NCBI RefSeq assembly: GCF_039982535.1 | Contig: NZ_JBDWYG010000039.1 | Span: forward strand, 164,743 to 228,742 | Length of the DNA: 64,000 bases | Reading direction: 5' to 3' | From: Aliiglaciecola sp. | GTDB lineage: Bacteria; Pseudomonadota; Gammaproteobacteria; Enterobacterales; Alteromonadaceae | Shown: positions 6,496-41,047 of the stretch, one piece after another | Position numbering within the stretch: position 1 is the first letter of the stretch | Layout: every line of letters starts with the position of its first letter | Translations under genes and position numbers: made by a program | The notes under the pieces: generated by a model | What the model saw: only the letters and a program-made list of their open reading frames with translations | The model's database searches: none | What the model was told of the DNA's origin: nothing

Positions 6496-7515
6496 ATGTA
6501 CAAAACAGCGGACCGAATGATTTCACAATCTCAACTTAGAAAAACTTGGATAGTCTTTGTACTGATGCTTACCGGGTGCAGTGGTGCTATTAGTGAGCCT
6601 GATAAATCTGTACGCCATGCTATCGAAGGAGCTTATGCAGCAGACATTTCTAGCGATAATAAAATCGCGGTTGTCTCCACAGCCCAACAGGGAATTTTAG
6701 TGTGGGATTTGGTTGCACAAACTGAAAAATTTAAATGGAGCCATGAAGAAGAAGGTCATGTTGTTAATACTGTTGGCATCGTGCATATAGCGGCCGACAG
6801 CAGTTATGTGGTAACTGCCGATCGGGAAGCTTTTGCGCTATGGAATTTGTCCACTGGTGAGCCTGAAGGTTTTTGGCGAATTGATGAAGCTAGCGTTCGT
6901 GATATCGCTGTGAGTAACAATGGTCGGGGAATATTGGTCGGCAGAGGTAATGGCAAAGCTATGTTTTTTGAACCTACCAGCGGACGCCGGTTAGAGTTCC
7001 TTGGTCATCAAGAAAAAATCAACAGTGTGGATATATCGCCTAACGGGTTTTACGCGCTAACGGGTGGTAACGACTATGTTGCTTACTTATGGGATACTCG
7101 CAGTGGGCAGGTTATTCACCGTTTTACTCATTCCAGTCGTGTCACTAAAGTTGCTTTAGATGATGCTGGTCGATACGCCTTCACCGCAGACAGTAAAAGA
7201 GGGGCCAAAATTTGGGATGTGCAAACGGGTGAAGAGATAAGCCAGTTATCTTTCATACAACGTCAAAAGATCTTCAGTGCAGCTACGTTTTCAGAAGATG
7301 GAAAATATTTAGCTACAGGTTCACCCGGCAGGGCCCTAAACCTTTGGTCGGTATCTACAGGAAGTGAGGTGCAAGAGTGGCGTGTTACCCCTAAAGACGG
7401 GACACAACCTCAAAGTGCGGTGGTCTATGCGGTGAGCTTCGAACAAAAAAATCAGTTATTATCTGAAAGCAGTAGTGGCCTTGCTGAATATTGGGCATTT
7501 GAACAGGAAAATTAG
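6496..7515 (+). CDS. WD40-repeat beta-propeller lipoprotein
   Basis: Lipobox LTGC; repeated GH...WD-type units (GHQEKINSVDISPNG...LWD, AKIWDVQTG). Confidence 0.85.
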   Translation: MYKTADRMISQSQLRKTWIVFVLMLTGCSGAISEPDKSVRHAIEGAYAADISSDNKIAVVSTAQQGILVWDLVAQTEKFKWSHEEEGHVVNTVGIVHIAADSSYVVTADREAFALWNLSTGEPEGFWRIDEASVRDIAVSNNGRGILVGRGNGKAMFFEPTSGRRLEFLGHQEKINSVDISPNGFYALTGGNDYVAYLWDTRSGQVIHRFTHSSRVTKVALDDAGRYAFTADSKRGAKIWDVQTGEEISQLSFIQRQKIFSAATFSEDGKYLATGSPGRALNLWSVSTGSEVQEWRVTPKDGTQPQSAVVYAVSFEQKNQLLSESSSGLAEYWAFEQEN

Positions 7516-30831: not shown

Positions 30832-32412
30832 TTACCTTGATACTGAAGGTTGACGAATAGGTTGCCCCGCAAGGGTCTGATTGACTACGCTATTTTCAAT
30901 GACAGCTTGGCCATTCAATATAAGCCATTCTACTCCCTCACTCAGTTCGGTGGGGTGCAGGTAACTAGCTTTATGTTGATAGGTATTGGGATTAAATATG
31001 ACAATATCGGCTATATAACCGGCTTTCAATTCGCCCCTGTCTTTTAATCCAAAGGTTTGAGCTGGCAGGTAAGTACTACGTTGAATAAATTCTTGGGTGC
31101 TTAACCAGCCTTTTTGTTTAACATATTCACGAAACTTTTTCGGGAAAGTACCATATTTGCGGGGATGACCTGTACTTCCATCTGAAGACGTGTTGACCCA
31201 AGGCTGGGTCATATAGGCTTTCATGTCTTGATCTGACATATTGAAACTGGCTACTCGCGCATTACCTTCTATAATAATTTTGCGAGCCGCATCAATGGGC
31301 TCCATTTCCCACAAACTAGCGACCTCGGCAAGAGTTTTACCGCGTATGTCAGGACGTTTAGGATCGCTAATCAATAATGATTCAGCCCCACCTCTGCGTC
31401 GCAAGTTTTTTGCCATTTCTAATTGTAGTGCTGGCCACAAAAAGTCATCCTTCATTCTGGCCATGTAAGCTTCTTTGCTGCCAGCCATGATATATCTGGG
31501 AACTAAGCTACCTGCCACACTAGTGCCAGAAGCGCGCCACGGATATTGATCTGCGGTTACATCAATTCCCTGTTGTCTAGCCTCGTTAATAAGTTGGATA
31601 ACCTCGGCGCTTTTCCCCCACACATCTACACCAAGGGATTTGATATGGGCGACATGGACTGGAATATCTGCTTGCTCACCAATTTGAATCACTTCTTTAA
31701 TAGCATTCACAAGGCCTATGCTATAGCTGCTTTCATCGCGAATATGACTGTCATATGCGCCGTTATATTGGGCTGCCACTTTTGCCAACTCTACGACTTC
31801 ACTGGTCATAGCGTAATTCCCCGGAACATAATACAAACCTGTAGATAGTCCCAAAGCTCCAGCTTGCATCGCTTGTTCAACTAGGTTTTTCATTTCTTCA
31901 AGCTCAGCATTGCTTGGGACGCGATCTTCAATTCCCATAACCGCTCTACGAATGGAACCGTGACCAACATATAAGGCGACATTCGTACCAATACCTTGTT
32001 CTTCATATTGTTTCAGTGTTCCGGCAACATCCACATTACCGCCGCCATCGACGTTGCAAAAAACAGTGGTCACACCCTGAGTTGTGTAGTTGATATTGGA
32101 ATTGGGTTCGCCTTTACCAAAATCATTGCAGGCATGGGTATGGGTATCAATAAAGCCGGGGGCAATGATGTTGTCACCAGCATCTATGTTGGTAATTGCT
32201 GTGATATGTTCAGGCACAGAGTCGCTTACAAATGAAATCTTGCCTTGATCTATCCCAATATAACCAGCAAAGGGAGTTTGTTCATTACCACTATAGATGT
32301 TGTTACCAGTGATAATGATGTCAATTTGCTCAGCTTTTTGCGTGCAAGCGGCACAAAAGGTGATAGTGAGAAGAATCAGTGAAAAGAATCGCAATTGGCA
32401 ATTTTGGTACAT
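30832..32412 (-). CDS. N-acyl-D-amino-acid deacylase (D-aminoacylase family), predicted lipoprotein
   Basis: APGFIDTHTHAC, QGVTT, GLSTGLYYVPG, SHIRDE, HIK, DQYPW, SSDG, HPRKYGTF; signal peptide ending in CAAC. Confidence 0.88.
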   Translation of the reverse strand: MYQNCQLRFFSLILLTITFCAACTQKAEQIDIIITGNNIYSGNEQTPFAGYIGIDQGKISFVSDSVPEHITAITNIDAGDNIIAPGFIDTHTHACNDFGKGEPNSNINYTTQGVTTVFCNVDGGGNVDVAGTLKQYEEQGIGTNVALYVGHGSIRRAVMGIEDRVPSNAELEEMKNLVEQAMQAGALGLSTGLYYVPGNYAMTSEVVELAKVAAQYNGAYDSHIRDESSYSIGLVNAIKEVIQIGEQADIPVHVAHIKSLGVDVWGKSAEVIQLINEARQQGIDVTADQYPWRASGTSVAGSLVPRYIMAGSKEAYMARMKDDFLWPALQLEMAKNLRRRGGAESLLISDPKRPDIRGKTLAEVASLWEMEPIDAARKIIIEGNARVASFNMSDQDMKAYMTQPWVNTSSDGSTGHPRKYGTFPKKFREYVKQKGWLSTQEFIQRSTYLPAQTFGLKDRGELKAGYIADIVIFNPNTYQHKASYLHPTELSEGVEWLILNGQAVIENSVVNQTLAGQPIRQPSVSR

Positions 32413-35522: not shown

Positions 35523-35631
35523 TATGTGTTTTCCTAGGTTCTTCCTAATTTACTTAGAAATTTATTATTTTTGCGGCTACTACACTCTACAATTATGTTT
35601 CTCAACACAATTGATAAATAATCTGCTAGTT

Positions 35632-35646
35632 ATAGCCTGTGGTTAT
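35632..35646. promoter_or_regulatory. Candidate LysR recognition site upstream of the TonB receptor operon
   Basis: ATAGC-CTGTG-GTTAT, T-N11-A core; matches the 36734-36748 palindrome with one arm mismatch. Confidence 0.55.
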
Positions 35647-35840
35647 GGGTTGGTGTAGAAAGACTCTGTATTTCTACTTGGCAAGTATTGTTGTGTGCAG
35701 CAAGCTTAGGTTAGTGTTTCAAGTTGTAATGTTTTTTGCAGTTTCTTAATTTTAAATTAAGAGGCCATGACACTGCAAATGTTAATGCTGTCAAAATCAC
35801 CCTTATGTTATCCTGCGACGATTCCAACTTGGGGAAGTTA

Positions 35841-36737
35841 ATGCGTTTACGTCATATCGAAGTATTTCATGCTATTTACACAACAGGTTCAATAACTAAC
35901 GCGGCTAAATTACTCTATGTATCTCAGCCTTCCGTTTCTAAAGTGTTGTCTCATGCAGAACAACAGCTCGGGTTTGATCTATTCCTACGTAATAAAGGAA
36001 AACTGATCCCCACAAGCGAGGCCAAAACCCTTTTTCCGGAGATAGATAAACTATATAAACAGCTTCGTTCGATAAATGCGTTAGCTGAAAATATTCATCG
36101 AAGTGATAGTGGCATCATTGATATAGCGCTAACCCCCGGACTTGGGTTTGGTGTTATTCCTCGCGCCATTGCTAAATTTAAAGAAGTGCATCCCCATGTC
36201 CAGTTTAAATTACAAACTATGCACAATGATGATGCCCTGCAAACCTTATTGGAACATAAGTGTGACTTAGCGCTGCTGTATTCCTCTCCTCCTCTACCGG
36301 GGATCCAAGAAGTTGAATTAGGGACCAGTGAAGTTGTCATTTTATACCCTAAAAAATCATTTCCCGAGAATAGCCAAAAAGTTAATCTTGAGTCTCTCGC
36401 TGAGCATGAATTGATTAGTATTTGGGACAGTGGACCGCTTGGGGATTTAGTTTTAGGTCGCTTCGAGTCGTTAGGAATGGAAACCCACAGTAATATGCAG
36501 GTTGATACCTATTTCATTGCCGCGAGTTTGGTGGATAAAGGGGTGGGATGTTGCACCATTGATAAGCTGACCGCCATGAGCAATATTACCGATAATATTG
36601 GTGTCTCTGCTTTTAATCCGGCTCTCGATTTCAAAATTAAAGGGTTACATTTGGAAACCAGACCCCTATCTCGGATTTGTGAGCACTTTTTGGATTTTGT
36701 GAGGGCCGAACTGGCGCTAGTCAATACACAACAATAA
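35841..36737 (+). CDS. LysR family transcriptional regulator (DgcR-like by context)
   Basis: MRLRHIEVFHAI...SITNAAKLLYVSQPSVSK HTH; start set at 35841. Confidence 0.93.
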   Translation: MRLRHIEVFHAIYTTGSITNAAKLLYVSQPSVSKVLSHAEQQLGFDLFLRNKGKLIPTSEAKTLFPEIDKLYKQLRSINALAENIHRSDSGIIDIALTPGLGFGVIPRAIAKFKEVHPHVQFKLQTMHNDDALQTLLEHKCDLALLYSSPPLPGIQEVELGTSEVVILYPKKSFPENSQKVNLESLAEHELISIWDSGPLGDLVLGRFESLGMETHSNMQVDTYFIAASLVDKGVGCCTIDKLTAMSNITDNIGVSAFNPALDFKIKGLHLETRPLSRICEHFLDFVRAELALVNTQQ

Positions 36738-36748
36738 CCTAGAGTTAT
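36734..36748. promoter_or_regulatory. Candidate LysR recognition site upstream of dgcN
   Basis: Perfect palindrome ATAAC-CTAGA-GTTAT (T-N11-A), about 60 bp upstream of a TACCAT -10 candidate at 36792. Confidence 0.6.
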
Positions 36749-36826
36749 GACTCACCCAAATCAAACTAATTTAGTTAAGCCAAAATATCTTTACCATGGA
36801 GTAATATCTATTTTAAAGGAATCTTG

Positions 36827-37825
36827 ATGAATATTAACTATCCGTATTTGCTATTTGTAGGAAACGCTACGGATTCCCTTAGCATTAAAATGGCTCGCAG
36901 TGCTGCTGATTGGAGTCCAGAAAAATGCTTAGCAGAATACCGATTACCTGGATGCACTGTGACTACAGGTTGTCCTGCTATGAATATTCAGCAAGCGGCT
37001 CAAGCTGGCGCAAAAAGTTTCGTGCTAGGGTTTGCCAATAGCGGTGGATTCCTCGACCCTCAATGGATTCCCACCATACTGGAAGCTATGGATGCCGGTA
37101 TGGATATTGTCAGTGGATTACACGATAAACTCACCGATATTCCTGAATTGCAGCAAAAAGCCAAGGCCCTTAATTTACAGTTAATTGATATTCGCCATCC
37201 GGTTACTCGGTTTAAAACCGGAACAGGTAAAAAGCGCATTGGTAATCGTCTGCTGACCGTGGGGACAGACTGTTCCGTGGGTAAAATGTATACAACCCTT
37301 AGCCTCACAAACGAAATTCAGCGCCGCCAAGTGCCTGCCACTTTTAGGGCCACCGGCCAAAGTGGTGTGCTGGTCTCGGGTGATGGAGTTGCCATTGACT
37401 GTGTTATTGCCGATTTCATTTCCGGCGCAGCAGAAAGTCTTAGTCCAGAAAACAGCTCAGAACATTGGGATATTATAGAAGGACAAGGTTCTTTGTCACA
37501 TCCAGCGTTCGCTGGCGTAAGCTTAGGGTTATTGCACGGGTCACAACCTGACTCGCTGGTGGTTTGTCATGCACTAGGTCGGGAGCACATGCGCGGCCTC
37601 CCGTTACAGCCCTTACCCACAATTGAACAAACCATTAATCTCAATTTGGCCCATGCAAAGTTAACCAACGCCCAAGCTAGAGTGGTGGGCATTGCCATCA
37701 ACACTTCCTCGGTGGATGCTGAGCAAGCCCTGCAAATTTGCCAATCAATTAGTCAGCAAACCGGCTTACCCTGCTCTGATCCCATTCGCCACGGTGTCAC
37801 CTCAATTGTAGATAACCTGTTATGA
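36827..37825 (+). CDS. dgcN: D-glutamate N-acetyltransferase (DUF1611 family)
   Basis: PYLLFVG, LTVGTDCSVGKMYT, FRATGQSG, DFISGAAE, IEGQGSLSHP, LLHGSQPD; directly upstream of dgcA. Confidence 0.85.
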   Translation: MNINYPYLLFVGNATDSLSIKMARSAADWSPEKCLAEYRLPGCTVTTGCPAMNIQQAAQAGAKSFVLGFANSGGFLDPQWIPTILEAMDAGMDIVSGLHDKLTDIPELQQKAKALNLQLIDIRHPVTRFKTGTGKKRIGNRLLTVGTDCSVGKMYTTLSLTNEIQRRQVPATFRATGQSGVLVSGDGVAIDCVIADFISGAAESLSPENSSEHWDIIEGQGSLSHPAFAGVSLGLLHGSQPDSLVVCHALGREHMRGLPLQPLPTIEQTINLNLAHAKLTNAQARVVGIAINTSSVDAEQALQICQSISQQTGLPCSDPIRHGVTSIVDNLL

Positions 37826-38805
37826 CCTTAGCAATTAATATTAGTACTCAGTCTTTTCCTCTGAAATCCGCTTTTCGTATTTCCCGTGGGGTTAAAACGA
37901 GTGCGGAAGTGGTGGTTGTGTCTATCACTGATGGTAAATATCGTGGATGGGGTGAAGCTGTCCCTTATGCCCATTATGGCGAAACCATTGAGAGTGTTTG
38001 TGAACAGCTAAAAGGTGTTCAAAATCAAATTGTCAGTACCGAGCAGCATAGTGAACTAAGCCAGTTATTAGCTCCAGGTTCGGCTCGAAATGCCTTTGAT
38101 TGTGCCCTTTGGGACTTGCGGGCGAAACAACAAGGGCGCAGCGTTGCTGAGCTGGTTGGGGTGTCACTATGCTCGTCTTGTCATAGTGCGCAAACCATTA
38201 GTATCGACACTGTGGATAATATGGCGTTAGCGGCGCAACAGCTAAAACACAATAAAGTGATAAAAGTAAAGTTAGATGAACAGGATGTGGTGCAACGAAT
38301 TCAGGCTATTCATGCTGTTTGTCCTAACAGTCAGATTATTGTTGATGCCAATGAAGCATGGAGTCTTGAATTGCTAACACAGGTGGTGGAACCGCTACAC
38401 GCCTGTAACGTGGCATTAATTGAACAGCCTTTACCTAGTGGTAAGGATCAGGTTTTAGCTGGATTTCAATCGAGTATTCCACTTTGTGCTGATGAGTCCT
38501 GTCACACTGCAGATGACTTGGAACGTTTGCTTCCCTTATATCAAGCGGTAAACATCAAATTGGATAAAACTGGTGGATTGACTGAAGCTTTAAAGTTAAT
38601 GAAGTTGGCTAAACAGCATAATCTAAACGTTATGATAGGTTGTATGGTGGGATCATCTCTTGCTATGGCGCCAGCATACCTATTGGCTGGCGATGCGGAC
38701 TTTATTGACCTCGATGGGCCAGCGTTAATTGCTAACGACCGCCCGGGTGGTTTTGCATTTGTAGATGGCGAAATGGCGATAAATAGCCAACCTTTATGGG
38801 GTTAA
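37822..38805 (+). CDS. dgcA: N-acetyl-D-glutamate racemase / dipeptide epimerase (enolase superfamily)
   Basis: FRISRG, ARNAFDCALWD, KVK, DANE, IEQP, CADE, NIKLDKTGG, DLDG. Confidence 0.83.
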   Translation: MTLAINISTQSFPLKSAFRISRGVKTSAEVVVVSITDGKYRGWGEAVPYAHYGETIESVCEQLKGVQNQIVSTEQHSELSQLLAPGSARNAFDCALWDLRAKQQGRSVAELVGVSLCSSCHSAQTISIDTVDNMALAAQQLKHNKVIKVKLDEQDVVQRIQAIHAVCPNSQIIVDANEAWSLELLTQVVEPLHACNVALIEQPLPSGKDQVLAGFQSSIPLCADESCHTADDLERLLPLYQAVNIKLDKTGGLTEALKLMKLAKQHNLNVMIGCMVGSSLAMAPAYLLAGDADFIDLDGPALIANDRPGGFAFVDGEMAINSQPLWG

Positions 38806-38845: not shown

Positions 38846-40138
38846 TTAACTAATTGGTAATGACACTCTGGCTACTAAGCCGCCTTGGGAATGGTTACTC
38901 AGTTCGATTTTACCTTTATGAAGGCTGACAATTCGTTTGATGATGGCTAAGCCGAGTCCTGAACCACCACTACCTCTGGCTTTATCACCTTGGGTAAATG
39001 GCTGAAACAAGTCTTCAATATTTTCTGTGGGGATGCCAGGGCCGTAATCTCGGACTTCAAAATACACCTGTTTATTACGCTTATCATGATAGCTAGTAAT
39101 CAGGATGTTTTCACTGCCATAACGAAAGGCATTTTCAATGAGGTTATCTAACACTCGTTTGATTGCAATCCGTCTTATCATCACCTTAGGTAGTTCAGTT
39201 AATTGCGTATCGATGTGGTAATTTTCTTGAATATTACGAGCATGCACAACATCTTCAATCAACTCGTTCAAAGACAACATCTCACGACGCTCTCGGGTAT
39301 CTTGACGCACATAATGAATAAACTGATCGATAATGTCGTTCATGTCTTCAATGTCGTGGACGATTCCATCTTTTATCCATAGCTGTTCGTCGGGCAGCAT
39401 TTCTGTTGCCAATCGTATGCGCGTTAAAGGGGTGCGCAAATCATGGGAAATGCCCGCAGTTAATAGCGCGCGGTCATCTTCTAACTGCTTAATACCCTTC
39501 GACATTTGATTAAACGCGCTGGTGACCGCAATTAACTCACTTGCCCCTTCTTCTTCTAATGGTGCCGGGACCTTTCCCTTAGCTACTTCTAGCGCTGCCA
39601 TTTGTAAGGCGTGAATGGGTTTGTTTAAGCGTCGCACAAAAATCCATCCGCCAGCGACACTCAAAATACCGATGACGATCAAATAAATGGTAAGGGGAGA
39701 GATATCGCCTTCACTAAAGCTTGCCATGGGAATGGATATCCACACGTTTGGATCTTGTGGCGGGTTTACCCAAATTAAGAAAGGTTCTGAGGCTGAGATC
39801 CTAACGTCTGCTTCTCCACCGAGTAAATCGGAAATCTGACGAGAGAAAAATTGGTAATAAATAGCCTGCTGCAATCCACTTTCCACAGCTTGTTTTTCGC
39901 TGTATATGCGAATATTTGTAGCATCAAAAATGTGACTTTGGGTTTGCGGATTGAGGTAATCGACCTCATCCAGAAACACCATGTTAATTTGCTTGGCGAT
40001 TAATGAATTTATCTGTTGATAATTAGGCCGGATAAAATAATAAGTGACTGATAGATAGGACACCACTTGGTTAATCAGCAGCAATACACCAATTAATAAG
40101 ACGGTTTGTCCAAATGCACTTTTAGGAAAGATTCTCAC
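38846..40138 (-). CDS. envZ: Osmolarity sensor histidine kinase
   Basis: [43 protein letters not shown]. Confidence 0.94.
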
Positions 40139-40177
40139 CAGTTTTGATTCAACCTAACTAACTTGGGGTAAACACAT

Positions 40178-40900
40178 TTATTGCGCTTCGCCATCGGGTA
40201 CAAATACATATCCTAATCCCCAAACAGTTTGAATATAACGGGGATTGGCAGGATCGACTTCAAGCATCCTACGTAAACGCGATACTTGAACATCAATGCT
40301 ACGCTCTAATGCACTGTAATCACGGCCTCTGGCCAAGTTCATTAGTTTGTCTCTTGATAACGGCTCTCTAGGGTGGGTTACTAAGGATTTTAACACCGCA
40401 AACTCGCCACTGGTTAAGGTAAGGGCTTCCCCGTCTGCAAACATTTCGCGGGTGGCAAGGTTCAATTTATACTTACCAAATTCCACAATCTGCATTTCTT
40501 GCGAGGGCGCACCTGGGGCTTCGTTGGTTTTACGACGTAGTACGGCTTTAGCTCGGGCCAGTAGTTCTCTAGGGTTAAAGGGTTTAGGCAGGTAGTCATC
40601 AGCGCCCATTTCTAAACCAATGATGCGGTCTACTTCATCACCTTTAGCGGTCAACATTATAATTGGAATTTCATTTTCTTTTTGGCGTAGACGTCGACAG
40701 ATTGAGAGGCCATCTTCACCTGGCAACATTAAATCCAGTACTAACAAATGAAAGTTCTCGCGTTCTAATAAACGATCCATTTGCTCAGAGTTAGCAGCTG
40801 AACGAACTTGATAGCCCTGTTCTACTAAGTAGCGTTCTAGCAAGCTACGTAGGCGCATATCATCATCAACAACCAATACTTTCTGTGTTTCTTGTCCCAT
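40178..40900 (-). CDS. ompR: Response regulator OmpR
   Basis: KVLVVDDDMRLRSLLERYL, DLMLPGEDGLSICRRLR, RYIQTVWGLGYVFVPDG; start at MGQETQK. Confidence 0.96.
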   Translation of the reverse strand: MGQETQKVLVVDDDMRLRSLLERYLVEQGYQVRSAANSEQMDRLLERENFHLLVLDLMLPGEDGLSICRRLRQKENEIPIIMLTAKGDEVDRIIGLEMGADDYLPKPFNPRELLARAKAVLRRKTNEAPGAPSQEMQIVEFGKYKLNLATREMFADGEALTLTSGEFAVLKSLVTHPREPLSRDKLMNLARGRDYSALERSIDVQVSRLRRMLEVDPANPRYIQTVWGLGYVFVPDGEAQ

Positions 40901-41047
40901 GTCGACCCTCAAAAGGAAATACCCGTTAATCACACCACTATAAATGAATACTAGGGAATTCAAAAGATTAGCTAAGTAACAATGTTATGTGGAGTGTTAC
41001 AAATTGTTTGTGAGAAGCCGTATAAACAACATTTAATAAAAACCTTG

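Follow-up and report, generated by a model that had tools for sequence, protein, structure and literature searches.

Matching predicted LysR-type operators at the dgcNA promoter and at a TonB receptor-hydrolase promoter in an Aliiglaciecola D-glutamate locus

D-Glutamate from bacterial cell walls represents a sizeable and hard-to-degrade pool of marine organic matter. In Pseudoalteromonas sp. CF6-2, transcription of dgcN and dgcA is reportedly activated by the regulator DgcR, and D-glutamate is said to induce dgcNA through DgcR in Pseudoalteromonas. The DgcN-DgcA route accounts for the intracellular catabolism of D-glutamate, but not for the uptake or the cutting of D-glutamate-containing material. 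The DgcR-DgcN-DgcA D-glutamate catabolic system of Pseudoalteromonas sp. CF6-2 (Yu et al., ISME J 2023) is cited in PMC12363236. As to the LysR-type regulators in general, the definition of their sites and the general model of their action have been laid out (PMC11495319; PMC5002191), and the published operators are 15-bp inverted repeats centered at -64 to -66 (PMC5002191; PMC11495319). One example is the CynR operator, ATAA-N7-TTAT, centered at -66; another is the site of Escherichia coli LysR at lysA, ATATC-N5-GATAT, at -64; a third is the strongest site of OccR, at -64 (all in PMC5002191). Some LysR-type regulators do not possess a site overlapping their own divergent promoter (reviewed in PMC11495319). 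In the papers that we consulted, no operator consensus, no spread across classes and no link to a TonB arm is described for this system.

The locus analyzed here is carried by a 64,000-nucleotide stretch of the genome of Aliiglaciecola sp. (contig NZ_JBDWYG010000039.1), referred to as the window, and its features are collected in Table 1. Both DgcN and DgcA score above the respective NCBIfam equivalog cut-offs, dgcN starts with the ATG at 36827, the start of dgcA overlaps the end of dgcN, and the LysR-type regulator encoded upstream is presumed to be the DgcR ortholog. In the left arm, the start of the M14 carboxypeptidase gene overlaps the end of the amidohydrolase gene. On the right, an EnvZ/OmpR-type pair of a histidine kinase and a response regulator (38846-40963, minus strand) is convergent with dgcA, and between the end of dgcA at 38805 and this pair we found neither a gene for an N-acetyl-L-glutamate hydrolase nor a gene for an inner-membrane transporter.

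Table 1. Genes, boxes and predicted promoter elements of the locus, in window coordinates; distances are given from the box centers.
Feature	Position	Strand	Sequence, domain or family	Placement
M14 zinc carboxypeptidase, 877 aa	28239..30872	-	Pfam Peptidase_M14	left arm, gene 3
Amidohydrolase, 526 aa, D-aminoacylase-like	30832..32412	-	Pfam Amidohydro_3, Amidohydro_1	left arm, gene 2
TonB-dependent receptor, 1014 aa	32478..35522	-	Pfam Plug, TonB_dep_Rec_b-barrel	left arm, gene 1
Predicted -10 hexamer, TonB receptor promoter	35584..35589	-	TAGAGT	starts 50 bp after box 1 center
Candidate activation site, weakly conserved	35607..35622	-	ATTAT-N5-AATTGT	17 to 32 bp after box 1 center, overlaps -35 region
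Box 1, predicted LysR regulatory binding site, TonB receptor promoter	35632..35646		ATAGCCTGTGGTTAT	center 35639, about -62 from predicted transcription start
LysR-type regulator, 298 aa	35841..36737	+	Pfam HTH_1, LysR_substrate	
Box 2, predicted LysR regulatory binding site, dgcN promoter	36734..36748		ATAACCTAGAGTTAT	center 36741, about -63 from predicted transcription start
Candidate activation site, weakly conserved (column profile)	36758..36773	+	AAA-N7-AyT	17 to 32 bp after box 2 center, overlaps dgcN -35 region
Predicted -10 hexamer, dgcN promoter (TAnnnT conservation)	36792..36797	+	TACCAT	
dgcN, N-acetyltransferase acting on D-glutamate	36827..37825	+	NCBIfam NF041892, 491.7 bits (cut-off 480); Pfam DUF1611	
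dgcA, N-acetyl-D-glutamate racemase	37822..38805	+	NCBIfam NF042940, 434.3 bits (cut-off 400)	

A sequence-only reading of this DNA had placed two matching LysR boxes at 35632-35646 and 36734-36748, and both sequences are found there, each possessing the T-N11-A core that had been ascribed to them, within an imperfect dyad of about 15 bp, and each being one mismatch away from the perfect 15-base palindrome ATAACC-N3-GGTTAT. Box 1 sits inside the 318-bp gap that separates the TonB receptor gene, on the minus strand, from the LysR-family gene, on the plus strand. Bases 2-4 of box 2 are the lysR stop codon TAA (36735-36737), and, as the box overlaps the end of lysR, the dgcN promoter begins inside the regulator gene. 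The shared pattern that had been proposed does occur at these two places of the window alone, a test that is circular, as the pattern was derived from both sites. The boxes had also been put 55-65 bp upstream of the -10 elements; when distances are counted to the first base of the conserved hexamer, this stands for the 5' edges of the boxes (about 58 bp upstream of the hexamer) but not for their centers (50-51 bp).

Conservation of the motif in orthologous promoters had been named beforehand as the test that could refute the proposal, and the motif is kept. We retrieved 80 loci with LysR homologs, of which the gammaproteobacterial ones (L001-L042) encode LysR proteins of 49-63% identity to that of the window. 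In 33 of these 42, lysR is followed by dgcN, with dgcA usually next, and in 13 a receptor ortholog (39-43% identity) is present along with its upstream region; the amidohydrolase gene adjoins the receptor gene in L016, L026, L031, L033, L039 and L042. Counting a box if it is positioned within 250 bp upstream of a gene, all 13 receptor genes possess one with at most one mismatch (13/13 also with at most two), and so do 25 of the 33 dgcN genes, or 31 if two mismatches are allowed. Upstream of dgcA no box is present at either threshold (0/19), and upstream of the amidohydrolase gene the counts are 0/9 with one mismatch and 1/9 with two. The motif also emerges with the window left out, as a count of dyads in the dgcN upstream regions returns ATAAC-N5-GTTAT as the commonest by far (27/33), the next unrelated dyad being found in four. 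Altogether the orthologous loci span 515 kb, in which 50 sites with at most one mismatch are present, versus about 2.5 expected at the rate of the window's own genome. The box precedes the receptor gene also where the latter does not adjoin lysR (L001, L018-L021, L038), and in L039, where the receptor gene is downstream of lysR on the same strand. It is kept in loci possessing the receptor arm only (L016, L027, L042) and in those possessing dgcN only (L002-L014), and therefore the two arms appear to be tied to the regulator independently. Loci of the same gene order are found in Pseudoalteromonas, with LysR proteins 51-55% identical to that of the window.

The register of box 2 and the stop codon is also shared. 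In the window and in L004-L007, L010-L012, L014, L022, L023, L032 and L037, the TAA stop provides bases 2-4 of the operator. Several further loci have the lysR stop in the spacer or the left arm instead, and the box of L009 is entirely within the coding end of lysR.

Could the likeness of the boxes be fortuitous, or might the sequences work at the RNA level, as hairpins or terminators, given that box 2 is positioned at the end of lysR? The circularity of the window test speaks in favor of chance, and so does the genome as a whole, which is hardly enriched in the motif: its 4.9 Mb (40.9% G+C) contain 24 sites with at most one mismatch to the palindrome, versus about 18 expected from the base composition. 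However, conservation over dozens of loci excludes chance, and, as there are just 24 such sites in the genome, the linkage of the boxes is unlikely to be a coincidence, two of the 24 being found within 1.1 kb, flanking one lysR gene. As to the hairpins, neither box is paired in the minimum-energy structures, which are weak (-2.8 and -2.9 kcal/mol), neither is followed by a U run, and a terminator scan found nothing at either box; the folds and the scan rule out the terminator or hairpin reading. Chance and RNA structure together are thus left with a negligible probability.

The promoters associated with the boxes have a common anatomy, with the -10 elements located from conservation and the transcription starts predicted. 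When the non-redundant dgcN promoters are anchored on the box, TAnnnT starts 51 or 52 bp past the box center in 26 of 28. In a close relative, G006, 82% identical over the region, both boxes are kept, with changes in the 3-bp spacer only (one base different in each box), and TAnnnT is found at both -10 positions, TAGAGT being invariant and TAATAT standing where the window has TACCAT. As the TAnnnT hexamer starts 50-52 bp after the box center, the box would be near -63, and both boxes are predicted at about -62 or -63, which is where sites of LysR-type regulators are usually found. The distance from the box center to the dgcN ATG is 86 bp in the window and 87-95 bp in most loci.

Between the box and the -10 element, weaker conservation is recognized. 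In anchored alignments, most receptor promoters possess an AATTGT-like hexamer at +27 to +32 from the box center, and AATTGT is found between the box and the -10 element also in the promoters of the PGA_cap genes described below. The dgcN promoters instead possess, in the same interval, AAA at +17 to +19 and AyT near +27 to +29. The element at 35607..35622 is conserved in G006, and between the window and this relative the DNA that separates the receptor start codon from box 1 is nearly invariant, with conservation dropping directly past the box on the lysR side. A good -35 hexamer is absent from both promoters. A scan for consensus promoters returned nothing in either regulatory region, which counts against the predicted promoters, although such an outcome is to be expected where a -35 element is lacking. 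This promoter form, with a weak intervening element and no good -35, would fit an activator-dependent promoter with a degenerate activation site.

When the full module is defined as a box with at most one mismatch, AyT at +26 to +28, TAnnnT at +49 to +54 and a downstream gene, the sites of box 1 and box 2 are the only ones in the whole genome. Two further intergenic boxes are found, and the -10 spacing of the two main sites is absent from both. One of these, C77:51232 (ATAACCTAAGGGTAT), is 175 bp upstream of a gene for a 390-aa M14 peptidase, whose orthologs in other genomes are encoded in the receptor operon or next to lysR; this box is inside an array of REP-like repeats, and the closest relatives do not possess it. 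The other, C11:45900 (ATAACCTAAGGCTAT), precedes a second TonB receptor gene by 228 bp. Both may be considered as weak candidates for further regulon members. The repeat array itself (C77:50880-51300; L082:1880-2320) lies between a redoxin gene and the gene for the 390-aa M14 peptidase and is made up of REP-like units (ctgtaggcgggcgctttagccccgcgaaagttgtatgg...), five or six in number and each about 75-80 bp long, and the weak box falls inside one of them. Immediately to the left of the window (G000:C39:161194-163617), a second large M14 carboxypeptidase is encoded, 36% identical to the 877-aa one, and no box with up to three mismatches is present in the 450 bp scanned upstream of its gene.

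As to the identity of the regulator, the nearest named family for the LysR-type protein is E. coli LysR (PRK11013), the score being below the cut-off of this family. Across L001-L042 its helix-turn-helix part is 80% identical and the remainder 43%, and across L043-L080 the respective values are 66 and 30%, the pattern that would be expected if the LysR protein itself read the box. The more distant homologs (36-44% identity), from genomes of about 65% G+C, are encoded next to similar sequences, either TTAACC-N3-GGTTAT, right after the stop codon of lysR, or ATAACC-N3-TGTTAT, immediately ahead of the gene, and in these loci the box precedes genes for a DAO-family oxidoreductase and an amino-acid-binding protein, or for a peptide ABC transporter of the Dpp type. 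One example is presented by L046-L058 (Paraburkholderia and others), in which, near position 6900, a lysR gene (about 40% identity) is followed right after its stop codon by TTAACC-N3-GGTTAT, and this box precedes genes for a DAO-family FAD oxidoreductase and a family-3 solute-binding protein. Another example is presented by L053, L060, L061 and L073, in which ATAACCTTGTGTTAT is found between lysR and the genes for the Dpp-type ABC transporter. Overall, more than 60 loci of Gamma-, Beta- and Alphaproteobacteria possess the box next to a gene of this LysR lineage, with changing target genes.

These observations bear on the possibility that the boxes are real operators but belong to another transcription factor, encoded elsewhere, with the LysR gene being a bystander. 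While A/T-rich palindromes are indeed bound by regulators of many families, such a factor would have to account for a box that stays with the LysR lineage as the targets change from dgcN and the TonB receptor to a PGA_cap protein, the DAO-family oxidoreductase and the Dpp-type transporter, for a helix-turn-helix part conserved along with the box, and for a T-N11-A form and a position near -63 that are typical of LysR-type sites. We thus find it very improbable that another factor is involved. Instead, the LysR-type regulator whose gene is positioned between the boxes very probably binds both, and it would co-regulate dgcNA and the receptor-hydrolase operon. The earlier proposal of one LysR-type regulator acting on both arms is well supported, because the box is conserved at both promoters, keeps a constant spacing to a -10 element that is itself conserved, and stays beside the LysR gene across contexts and classes.

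The genes preceded by the box in related loci extend beyond those of the window. One example is exported proteins that are about 690 aa long and combine a PGA_cap domain, of the poly-gamma-glutamate capsule family, with an N-terminal CarboxypepD_reg domain (L016:6894-8951(-), L019:9426-11507(-), L025:8788-10815(-), L028:3479-5596(-), L042:6925-9003(-)); the box is some 40-95 bp upstream of these genes, with the spacing of AyT and TAnnnT unchanged, and the proteins may be exported hydrolases of gamma-glutamyl polymers. Another example is a gene for a GltS sodium/glutamate symporter, which in L029 is divergent from the M14-amidohydrolase operon, with the box in between. Further examples are a gene for an NhaC-family transporter, divergent from the receptor gene, and an operon encoding an M14 peptidase of about 393 aa, an amidohydrolase and the receptor. 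Homologs of the PGA_cap and GltS proteins were not found in the window's own genome by tblastn. Genes whose products resemble Orn/DAP/Arg decarboxylases (PLP fold type III) are likewise preceded by the box and adjoin the gene for the LysR ortholog (L024:7096-8373(+), L029:7092-8369(+), L039:4706-5989(+)): in L024 and L029 it is between lysR and the decarboxylase-like gene, and in L039 it is upstream of the decarboxylase-like gene, which there precedes lysR. As DAP decarboxylase acts on a D-center, these proteins could be D-amino acid decarboxylases. The common theme of the box-bearing genes, as far as their predicted products indicate, would be taking up or degrading D-glutamate-containing or cell-wall-derived material.

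This spectrum of genes also raises the question of the signal. The regulator could bind both boxes but respond to a compound other than D-glutamate, such as a peptidoglycan-derived peptide, diaminopimelate, N-acetyl-L-glutamate or a gamma-glutamyl oligomer, in a broader scavenging of cell-wall material or poly-gamma-glutamate. The inducer of E. coli LysR, of the nearest named family, is diaminopimelate, and the box-bearing genes for Orn/DAP-decarboxylase-like, PGA_cap-domain and M14 peptidase proteins would suit such a signal as well. However, dgcN, whose product is above the equivalog cut-off for D-glutamate N-acetyltransferase, is the commonest target by far, a glutamate symporter gene possesses the box in L029, and dgcNA is reportedly induced by D-glutamate via DgcR in Pseudoalteromonas, so that a different signal seems unlikely to us. 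That the regulator binds, that it activates rather than represses, and that D-glutamate or N-acetyl-D-glutamate is the effector are what we infer here, and D-glutamate as the signal is suggested by the gene content (DgcN and DgcA above their cut-offs, a symporter and M14 peptidases with the box), along with the reported induction in Pseudoalteromonas.

Following the preferred explanation, with D-glutamate or its N-acetyl derivative as the effector, box 1 and box 2 would be the high-affinity sites of the regulator, each about 63 bp upstream of a transcription start. One promoter would drive dgcN-dgcA, and the other would drive the left-arm operon, from the TonB receptor gene through the amidohydrolase gene to the M14 peptidase gene; both would need an activator, because in each a -10 element is recognizable but a good -35 element is missing. 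If the regulator works as other LysR-type proteins do, one dimer would sit on the palindrome and another would touch the weak element about 25 bp downstream, and binding of the effector would shift the latter dimer so that RNA polymerase could start at both promoters. This explanation as a whole, with the boxes as high-affinity LysR sites, two activator-dependent promoters and effector-driven activation, appears highly likely from the sequence comparisons.

The usual autoregulation through a shared divergent promoter is probably not in operation here: 195 bp separate box 1 from the lysR ATG, the intervening stretch is poorly conserved, and most of the orthologous loci possess no box upstream of lysR. 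One speculation is that read-through from lysR could provide a basal expression of dgcNA, as no terminator was found between lysR and dgcN.

A conserved common operator links the TonB receptor and two hydrolases to dgcNA, and the defined 15-bp sequence is a simple predictor of further regulon members in other genomes. Going further, the box may define a multi-class proteobacterial regulon for the uptake and dismantling of D-glutamate-containing material, such as stem peptides or poly-gamma-glutamate, in which the TonB receptor, the M14 peptidases, the D-aminoacylase-like hydrolase, the PGA_cap proteins and the glutamate symporters would all feed DgcN and DgcA under one LysR-type sensor. We put this forward tentatively, giving it slightly less than an even chance. 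If true, it would assign roles to several uncharacterized protein families and would identify an outer-membrane entry route for D-glutamate-containing substrates.

In comparison with the known systems, the gene order of the locus, with dgcN and dgcA next after a gene of the LysR family, is that of the DgcR-DgcN-DgcA system of Pseudoalteromonas sp. CF6-2. Here, however, the box is also found before the operon of the TonB receptor and the two hydrolases (amidohydrolase and M14 peptidase), which is not known to belong to the described pathway. In comparison with the classical LysR-type regulators, two differences are apparent. First, one target promoter, that of dgcN, follows the regulator gene in the same orientation, and its operator overlaps the stop codon of the regulator. 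Second, some 150 bp or more separate the divergent site from the likely lysR promoter, and this distance makes the usual autorepression doubtful. Otherwise, similar to CynR, E. coli LysR and OccR, a 15-bp inverted repeat with T-N11-A is found at a predicted position near -64, with weaker sites toward -35 in those systems and a weakly conserved candidate here, and the CynR pattern ATAA-N7-TTAT is also matched by ATAACC-N3-GGTTAT. The operator arrangement is a result of the ordinary LysR-type kind.
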